DNA from: a virus
Lineage: Duplodnaviria; Heunggongvirae; Uroviricota; Caudoviricetes
Length of the DNA stretch: 47,785 bases
Strand: one strand, 5' to 3'
Virus record (IMG/VR): IMGVR_UViG_2529292853_000006
A model generated the notes under the pieces. It was given only the letters and a program-made list of their open reading frames with translations, was not told the origin of the DNA and did not search any database. Position numbers and translations under genes: made by a program. Shown here in pieces: positions 46,620 to 47,785 of the stretch. Positions within the stretch are counted from its first letter, which is position 1; each line of letters opens with the position of its first letter.

Positions 46620-46868
46620 GTGAGGTAGCCTGAGTTTAACGGACACTCCTTCCTGAAATAGAATGGTATCAGAAGGAGCTAATAATGAGCAGAAAAACCC
46701 AACGTTACTCTATTCGATCAGTGAAGGCGCTTCCCGATTATCTCTTCCTGAAGGCACTTTAGGACAATGGGTTACCGCCGCCAGAAAAGGGCTCGGTACT
46801 CCTGGTTCCCGCACGGTGGCTGAACTGGAATCTGAAATTCTGCAACTGCGTAAGACGTTAAATTGAAG
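46620..46868 (+). pseudogene. IS3-family (IS600-like) orfA remnant with internal deletion/frameshift
   Basis: MSRKTQRYS... in one frame and ...SISEGASRLSLPEGTLGQWVTAARKG...LESEILQLRK in another; resembles IS600 OrfA as recalled. Confidence 0.45.
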
Positions 46869-46871
46869 TGG

Positions 46872-47141
46872 TCAACAAAAACTGGCCACCGAGTTAGAGT
46901 TTTTCCAGTATCGATTTTCCGATTCGTTTGGGGGTAACCCACCGTTATATTCGTGCGGTCTTAGTGCGCTGTAATATCCAACGATATAGTCCGTTATGGC
47001 GTGAGCTGCCTCGCTGAAGCTTACGTAACCCACCACCGGCATCCATTCGTTCTTCAGACTCCTGAAGAAGCGTTCCATTGGGCTGTTATCCCAGCAGTTT
47101 CCGCGCCGGCTCATACTCTGTCTGATCTGGTATCGCCACAA
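46872..47141 (-). pseudogene. IS3-family transposase OrfB C-terminal fragment
   Basis: [22 protein letters not shown] ... [10 protein letters not shown] typical of IS3-family OrfB C-termini; truncated at the IS629-like end. Confidence 0.6.
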
Positions 47142-47199
47142 TAACTGAACCGCCCCGGGAATCCTGGAGACTAAACTCCCTGAGAAAGAGGTAAACAGG

Positions 47200-47526
47200 A
47201 TGACTAAAAATACTCGTTTTTCCCCCGAAGTCCGTCAACGGGCAGTCCGTATGGTTCTGGAAAGTCAGGGCGAATATGACTCACAATGGGCGACAATTTG
47301 TTCCATTGCTCCAAAGATTGGCTGTACACCGGAGACTCTGCGTGTCTGGGTACGCCAGCATGAGCGGGATACCGGAGGCGGTGATGGAGGGCTCACCACC
47401 GCTGAACGTCAGCGTCTGAAAGAGCTGGAACGTGAAAATCGTGAACTGCGCCGCAGTAACGATATCCTTCGCCAGGCTTCCGCTTATTTTGCGAAGGCGG
47501 AGTTCGACCGCCTCTGGAAAAAATGA
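47200..47526 (+). CDS. IS629-like transposase OrfA
   Basis: 108-aa [40 protein letters not shown]... Confidence 0.85.
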
Positions 47527-47785
47527 TGCCACTGCTGGATAAGCTGCGTGAGCAGTACGGGGTCGGACCGCTATGCAGCGAACTGCATATTGCCCCGTCA
47601 ACGTATTACCACTGTCAGCAACAGCGACATCATCCGGATAAACGCAGTGCCCGTGCGCAGCGCGATGACTGGCTGAAGAAAGAGATACAGCGCGTATACG
47701 ATGAAAATCACAAGGTATACGGTGTGCGTAAAGTCTGGCGTCAGTTGTTACGGGAAGGTATCAGAGTGGCCAGATGCACTGTGGC
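47523..47785 (+). CDS. IS629-like transposase OrfB, 5' part (in -1 frame relative to OrfA; truncated by window end)
   Basis: [33 protein letters not shown]... begins in the A-run at the orfA stop. Confidence 0.8.

Follow-up and report, generated by a model that had tools for sequence, protein, structure and literature searches.

Organization of the contig end

The window, that is the whole 47,785-bp stretch of DNA analysed here, is the entire draft contig AQAC01000127.1 of the E. coli assembly GCA_000356785.2, to which it is identical in sequence. Its terminal 1.2 kb consists of commonplace transposon remains: IS600 is broken, a fragment of IS911 sits inside it, and an IS629-type element in turn cuts the IS911 (Table 1). 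The orientations of the three pieces alternate (+, -, +), and the contig ends inside the multi-copy IS629-type element, a usual break point of draft assemblies. All three pieces were found at the positions and on the strands proposed by the first-pass annotation, which had the region right and its start, 46620, one base early; the IS600 terminal TGAGG begins at 46621. The stretch from 41833 to 47785 (5,953 bp) is 99.9% identical to the ETEC plasmid pTW14425_123.7k (hereafter pTW14425).

As references we used PGAP-labelled or author-labelled copies and not ISfinder type sequences. By ISfinder convention, a sequence belongs to the same element when it shares at least 95% nucleotide identity with the reference; an element was considered complete when it had both terminal repeats and orfAB. 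The pairwise E-values of the IS600 and IS911 pieces, from 1e-97 to 1e-147, rule out chance similarity.

Table 1. Features of the window from the Rac-type prophage to the contig end.
Feature	Position	Strand	Size	Basis or remark
Rac-type prophage	18909..41832			Colinearity with the chromosomal Rac prophage extends into intR
IS2 fragment (orfB)	41833..42440		608 bp	NF006918, 467 bits
ORF 5' of the IS91-family ORF	42528..42893		121 aa	No Pfam or NCBIfam match
IS91-family transposase ORF	within 42528..44064	+	364 aa	NF033538
HicA/HicB pair	44291..44883	-	82 aa + 115 aa	Intact
ORF	45348..45659	-	103 aa	No Pfam or NCBIfam match
IS1	45646..46413		768 bp	Ends intact; internal stop in insB
Spacer	46414..46620		207 bp	After IS1
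IS600 left-end remnant	46621..46863	+		BLASTN vs PGAP-labelled IS600
Chance ORF over IS600 remnant	46663..46866	+	67 aa	Pfam HTH_Tnp_1
IS911 right-terminal piece	46864..47147	-	~284 bp	283/284 identity; NF033516, Pfam rve_3
IS911 orfB, C-terminal part	46872..47141	-	89 codons	NF033516, Pfam rve_3
IS629-type element, left part	47146..47785	+	640 bp of 1310 bp	BLASTN and profile matches
IS629-type orfA	47200..47526	+	108 aa	HTH_Tnp_1
IS629-type orfB (start)	from 47523	+		HTH_21; -1 frame, cut by contig end
ALIL pseudoknot	47481..47597	+		Rfam RF01497

The IS600 remnant and its marker ORF

The IS600-like orfA remnant opens with the left terminal repeat (TGAGGTAGCC...), followed by the 5' leader and by a truncated, frameshifted orfA whose native ATG is at 46686. 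In pairwise BLASTN, window 46621-46868 aligned with IS600 1-293 (locus L003) with 2 mismatches over 248 aligned bases (E = 1e-97) and two gaps, one of 46 bp inside the element and one of 1 bp at the IS911 junction. Outside the gap the identity is ~98.8%, for database matches as well, above the 95% level and in agreement with the first-pass assignment. The 46-bp deletion removes IS600 positions 93-138, falls between window positions 46712 and 46713, and frameshifts orfA.

Compared with IS600, an IS3-family element of Shigella and E. coli, the remnant keeps the left terminus, leader and orfA but is immobile: it covers positions 1-289 of 1264, minus the deleted 46 bp, and the right end, orfB and the catalytic part of the transposase are missing, which leaves it short of a complete element. 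We found no further IS600 sequence in the window, nor in 50 kb of pTW14425. PGAP labels the identical stretch of pTW14425 'transposase; frameshifted; missing C-terminus'.

The 67-aa ORF begins in the IS600 leader, follows the orfA frame created by the deletion, and stops at a TGA formed by the IS911 terminus. Only positions 24-75 of the 75 of HTH_Tnp_1 are matched, by residues 17-67. The ORF is a handy exact marker of the scar, as it combines the 46-bp deletion and the IS600|IS911 junction; 41 indexed blocks of the assembly collection contain this exact protein, and we read 24 contigs that carry it.

The IS911 fragment

The minus-strand piece, previously described as a C-terminal orfB fragment of the IS3 family, turned out to be the last 284 bp of IS911, the IS3-family model element for copy-out-paste-in transposition. 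It is 99.6% identical (BLASTN, E = 1e-147) to a PGAP-labelled copy of E. coli B (locus L005). An element of pO157 Sakai linked to IS911 by its authors' annotation was rejected as a reference, being only 87% identical. The right terminal repeat is intact, with its tip at 46864 (TGAAGTGGTCAACAAAAACTGGCC...; TGAAGTGGTCAAC...), and the piece is inverted relative to IS600.

Unlike a complete IS911, the piece keeps the right end only and has lost the left end together with orfA and most of orfB; the two terminal repeats and orfAB of a complete element are not all present. The remaining orfB codons match the IS3 transposase model NF033516 at positions 297-368 of 369 only, as well as Pfam rve_3; judging from this profile coverage, the piece would lack the first two catalytic aspartates. 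At the other side of the piece, bases 47146-47147 (TG) are common to the IS911 and IS629-type ends, and the break lies at 47145-47147. No further IS911 sequence was found in the window or in 50 kb of pTW14425.

The IS629-type element

The left terminus of the IS629-type element is intact, with terminal repeat TGAACCGCCCCGGGAATCC... and first bases TGAACCGCCCCGGG, and orfA is intact as well. OrfA and the start of orfB match NF033516 positions 1-86 and 93-171. The ALIL pseudoknot, an RNA structure stimulating the -1 frameshift from orfA into orfB, is full-length (model 1-117 of 117; 120.2 bits vs a gathering score of 50). The element thus has the features of the IS3 family, with TG at 47146-47147, a helix-turn-helix orfA, an orfB in the -1 frame and ALIL; the DDE domain lies past the window and is found in the sister copies. 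More generally, the window does not reach the right end of the element, and what we say of that end rests on sister plasmids.

Over the 640 bp in the window, identity is 99.7% with pTW14425, where the copy at this position is complete, and 95.6% with the annotated IS629 of pO157 Sakai. Against the latter, the complete sister copy reaches 95.9% in a gap-free alignment of 1310 bp, and is thus above the 95% level, although borderline. With IS629 it shares the 1310-bp length (in the sister plasmids), terminal repeats, the -1 frameshift between orfA and orfB, and ALIL. From these identities we regard it as a putative IS629 isoform that lies at the limit of the 95% identity usually required. IS629 has also been described as IS1203 or IS3411 isoforms and is abundant in E. 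coli O157:H7 and Shigella. PGAP names the copy of the scar 'IS3 family transposase' only, and between it and other copies on pTW14425 there are 9 differences in 1310 bases.

In pTW14425, CP035820 and CP035818 this copy is present in full, and its programmed-frameshift transposase is intact. Thus the earlier reading of a partial IS629-like element holds for the left end that cuts IS911, but not for a truncated element: it appears partial because the contig breaks in a multi-copy repeat, and not by biology. As far as the window goes, the element looks functional.

Occurrence in other genomes

Both junctions were recovered as a single uninterrupted match in 4 of 5,426 complete E. coli genomes, each time on a plasmid (CP127268, CP035818, CP035820, CP024244). 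Besides pTW14425, the other three are plasmids that we take to be from ETEC by their strain names. The three-part scar is also carried by more than 20 draft contigs, and the exact scar was not found in Shigella records. On pTW14425 the module is flanked by etpBA, of a two-partner secretion system, on one side and by an IS66 fragment with vapBC on the other, and the record also carries the heat-stable enterotoxin gene sta2. The neighbours of the module on ETEC virulence plasmids are etpBA, the HicAB toxin-antitoxin pair, an IS91-family element and IS1.

The set of insertion sequences listed by the first-pass annotation (IS1, IS2, IS600, IS629-type, IS91) is present, but its reading as a sign of Shigella and some E. 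coli lineages carries little weight. Indeed, the set is a weak lineage indicator because its elements occur in most complete E. coli genomes: among the 5,426, the IS600 piece matches 3,072, the IS911 piece 4,003 and the whole query 4,974. Only the exact scar is specific.

A related arrangement exists on p948 of ETEC H10407 (L009, 4001-6104), where IS911 is also cut by an IS629-type element. There IS911 is broken at reference position 383 by another IS629-type variant (96% identical), which ends prematurely at 1237 bp and adjoins cfaD and IS91/IS66 pieces; there is no IS600 partner. The differences in break, variant and IS600 partner point to an independent event. We also considered H10407 p948 as a progenitor of the scar via a 585-bp deletion, and rejected it on account of its different and truncated variant. 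IS629-type elements lie at yet other spacings in IS911 in two further loci (L002 and L006); they have landed in IS911 repeatedly.

Other pieces of the mosaic

The IS1 copy upstream of the scar has an ORF that ends at an internal stop at 46186-46188; PGAP labels the identical plasmid IS1 'programmed frameshift; internal stop', and no 9-bp target duplication is visible around the window copy. In the spacer that follows, 46415-46543 matches, at ~94.6% identity, a stretch without annotation that occurs in many small (~5.6 kb) mobilizable ColE1-like plasmids from E. coli, Salmonella and Klebsiella; this part of the spacer adds a further foreign fragment to the mosaic. The rest, 46544-46620, has no match besides the four ETEC plasmids.

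The HicA/HicB pair lies between the IS91-family element and IS1, a placement that is the same in ETEC plasmids. The identical plasmid copy of the IS91-family ORF is annotated as frameshifted. The 121-aa and 103-aa ORFs gave no match in Pfam or NCBIfam.

The IS2 join to the Rac-type prophage

The Rac-type prophage comprises recET, kilR, sieB, ydaT and others. It holds an inserted block with a BCCT transporter, a DUF2254 protein, a LysR regulator and an MFS transporter, and at three points the window is without the IS copies of strain MS 119-7. The gene of the Rac integrase, intR, is cut at 41832 by the right end of IS2 (TGGATTTGCCCC..., at 41833). After only 608 bp of IS2 the sequence changes to the ETEC-plasmid-like module. 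In related assemblies (L011), a complete IS2 sits at exactly this point and is followed by the rest of intR and by ttcA.

The IS2 piece itself is a hybrid, of chromosomal type at 41886, 42003 and 42011 and of plasmid type at 12 sites between 42180 and 42341. In a draft of the same assembly series, the 1.13-Mb contig AQEP01000012.1 (L017, 1-1800), the same module is joined via the same IS2 end, near one extremity of the contig, to a PapC-type fimbrial usher gene, with an IS2 crossover point that differs from that of the window.

Discussion

The three pieces very probably form a three-layer scar, produced by successive copy-out-paste-in transpositions of IS3-family elements whose distal halves were then lost. 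At the base of the scar, an IS600 occupied the site, and its left 289 bp remain. IS911 then inserted, inverted, into IS600 orfA after position 289; this step can be read directly from the junction, because an intact IS911 terminal repeat abuts an internal IS600 position. The 46-bp deletion of IS600 93-138 also took place. Finally, the intact left terminus of an IS629-type element came to abut IS911, at 282-284 bp from the right end of the latter, and the remaining IS911 and the distal IS600 are gone from the site. With one end each and no complete transposase, the IS600 and IS911 pieces are dead. The first-pass annotation had attributed the nested and inverted fragments to repeated insertion and recombination, and this core reading is supported. 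An earlier state is preserved in two draft contigs.

These contigs, APZA01000072.1 (L025) and APZG01000386.1 (L021), which come from the assemblies GCA_000357605 and GCA_000357805, carry the identical IS600 remnant, the 46-bp deletion and the IS600|IS911 junction, and in both of them IS911 runs uninterrupted across the position of the later IS629 break (reference 764-1250). This state implies that the entry of IS911 and the 46-bp deletion preceded the arrival of the IS629-type element. Further along in L025, IS911 is split between reference 763 and 764 by a ~2.27-kb group II intron (1090-3360), after which IS911 377-763 follows as far as the contig end. A reverse transcriptase/maturase ORF (RVT_1/GIIM) lies within the intron, and Rfam Intron_gpII matches at the intron boundary, 1090-1176, on the IS911 strand. 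L021 ends 157 bp past the same IS911 break, with the intron region from 6689.

That the pieces are a single intact IS3-family element misread as several, the outcome that the first-pass annotation had named as its own refutation, is scarcely conceivable. All three pieces are indeed of the IS3 family, with its domain architecture in common. However, each of them is 95.6-99.6% identical to a different element, and the three reference elements have no BLASTN match to one another and only 43-48% global identity. The alternating orientations (+, -, +) are equally at odds with one element, as are the termini, the IS911 right repeat and the IS629 left repeat, that lie in the interior of the region. 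A short-read assembly artefact, in which repeats were wrongly stitched together at the junctions, has slightly more to recommend it and is still highly improbable. Indeed, the draft contig stops within a repeat, and another join in it, at the IS2 of 41833-42440, looks suspicious. Yet four finished plasmids, obtained from different strains by different laboratories, have both junctions identical to the base, as do contigs of several other assemblies. As they are reproduced in four independently finished plasmids and in further draft contigs, the junctions are real DNA.

Within the layered scar, the IS911|IS629 junction could have formed in two ways. The IS629-type element may have inserted into IS911, and recombination between IS629 copies would later have exchanged or deleted its right neighbour. 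Or it may have inserted further right, and a one-ended leftward deletion promoted by its left end would have removed IS911 1 to ~965, the distal IS600 and the DNA between; we hold this second route to be quite possible, if somewhat short of an even chance. In line with it, and with later rearrangement at the site, no target duplication flanks the pTW14425 copy (left taac, right cttc), whereas two other IS629-type copies on that plasmid have clean 4-bp duplications (GTAA, AAAG). IS629-type elements also occur at several IS911 positions elsewhere (at reference 383 in H10407 p948, and in L002 and L006). In two reports, IS629 is described as causing deletions and excisions, promoted by the IS-excision enhancer (IEE), which is common in ETEC, and the IS629/IEE-promoted deletions include some anchored at the IS end (10.1101/2023.06.07.543989; PMC9943667). 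On the other hand, the right neighbour of the IS629-type copy comes in at least two versions across genomes and the left junction is constant, a pattern that exchange between IS629 copies explains equally well, and no genome with the pre-deletion arrangement was found.

The distal junction predicted for the nested insertion (the IS911 left end followed by IS600 from 286) was absent from the 5,426 complete E. coli genomes, where the query gave only two-piece matches ~580 bp apart. The distal junctions are missing from the window too, and a target-site duplication is not demonstrable there for either nested insertion. The two duplication-less IS629-type copies of pTW14425 were also considered as reciprocal recombinants; this was rejected, their flanks (tgac/gttc and taac/cttc) not pairing.

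The IS2 join may result from a real IS2-mediated recombination or, more likely, from an assembler mis-join through the repeat; the second IS2 join, in AQEP01000012.1, makes assembler artefacts more plausible. An integration of part or all of an ETEC virulence plasmid, in which homologous recombination within IS2 joined the module from the IS2 piece to IS629 to the chromosomal intR, seems to us rather unlikely. The region also calls for caution, as it shows how IS repeats interrupt draft contigs and may cause false joins in them.

Plasmids of E. coli and Shigella routinely carry nested and truncated IS3-family elements, and the mechanisms behind them are well studied; what we describe is known behaviour of the family and no new biology. 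The scar can serve as a marker of a specific ETEC plasmid module, and it records a relative order of events, with IS911 entering IS600 before the IS629-type element arrived. If the plasmid integration is true, the IS600'/IS911'/IS629 scar would be a clonal marker for tracking this module between replicons.
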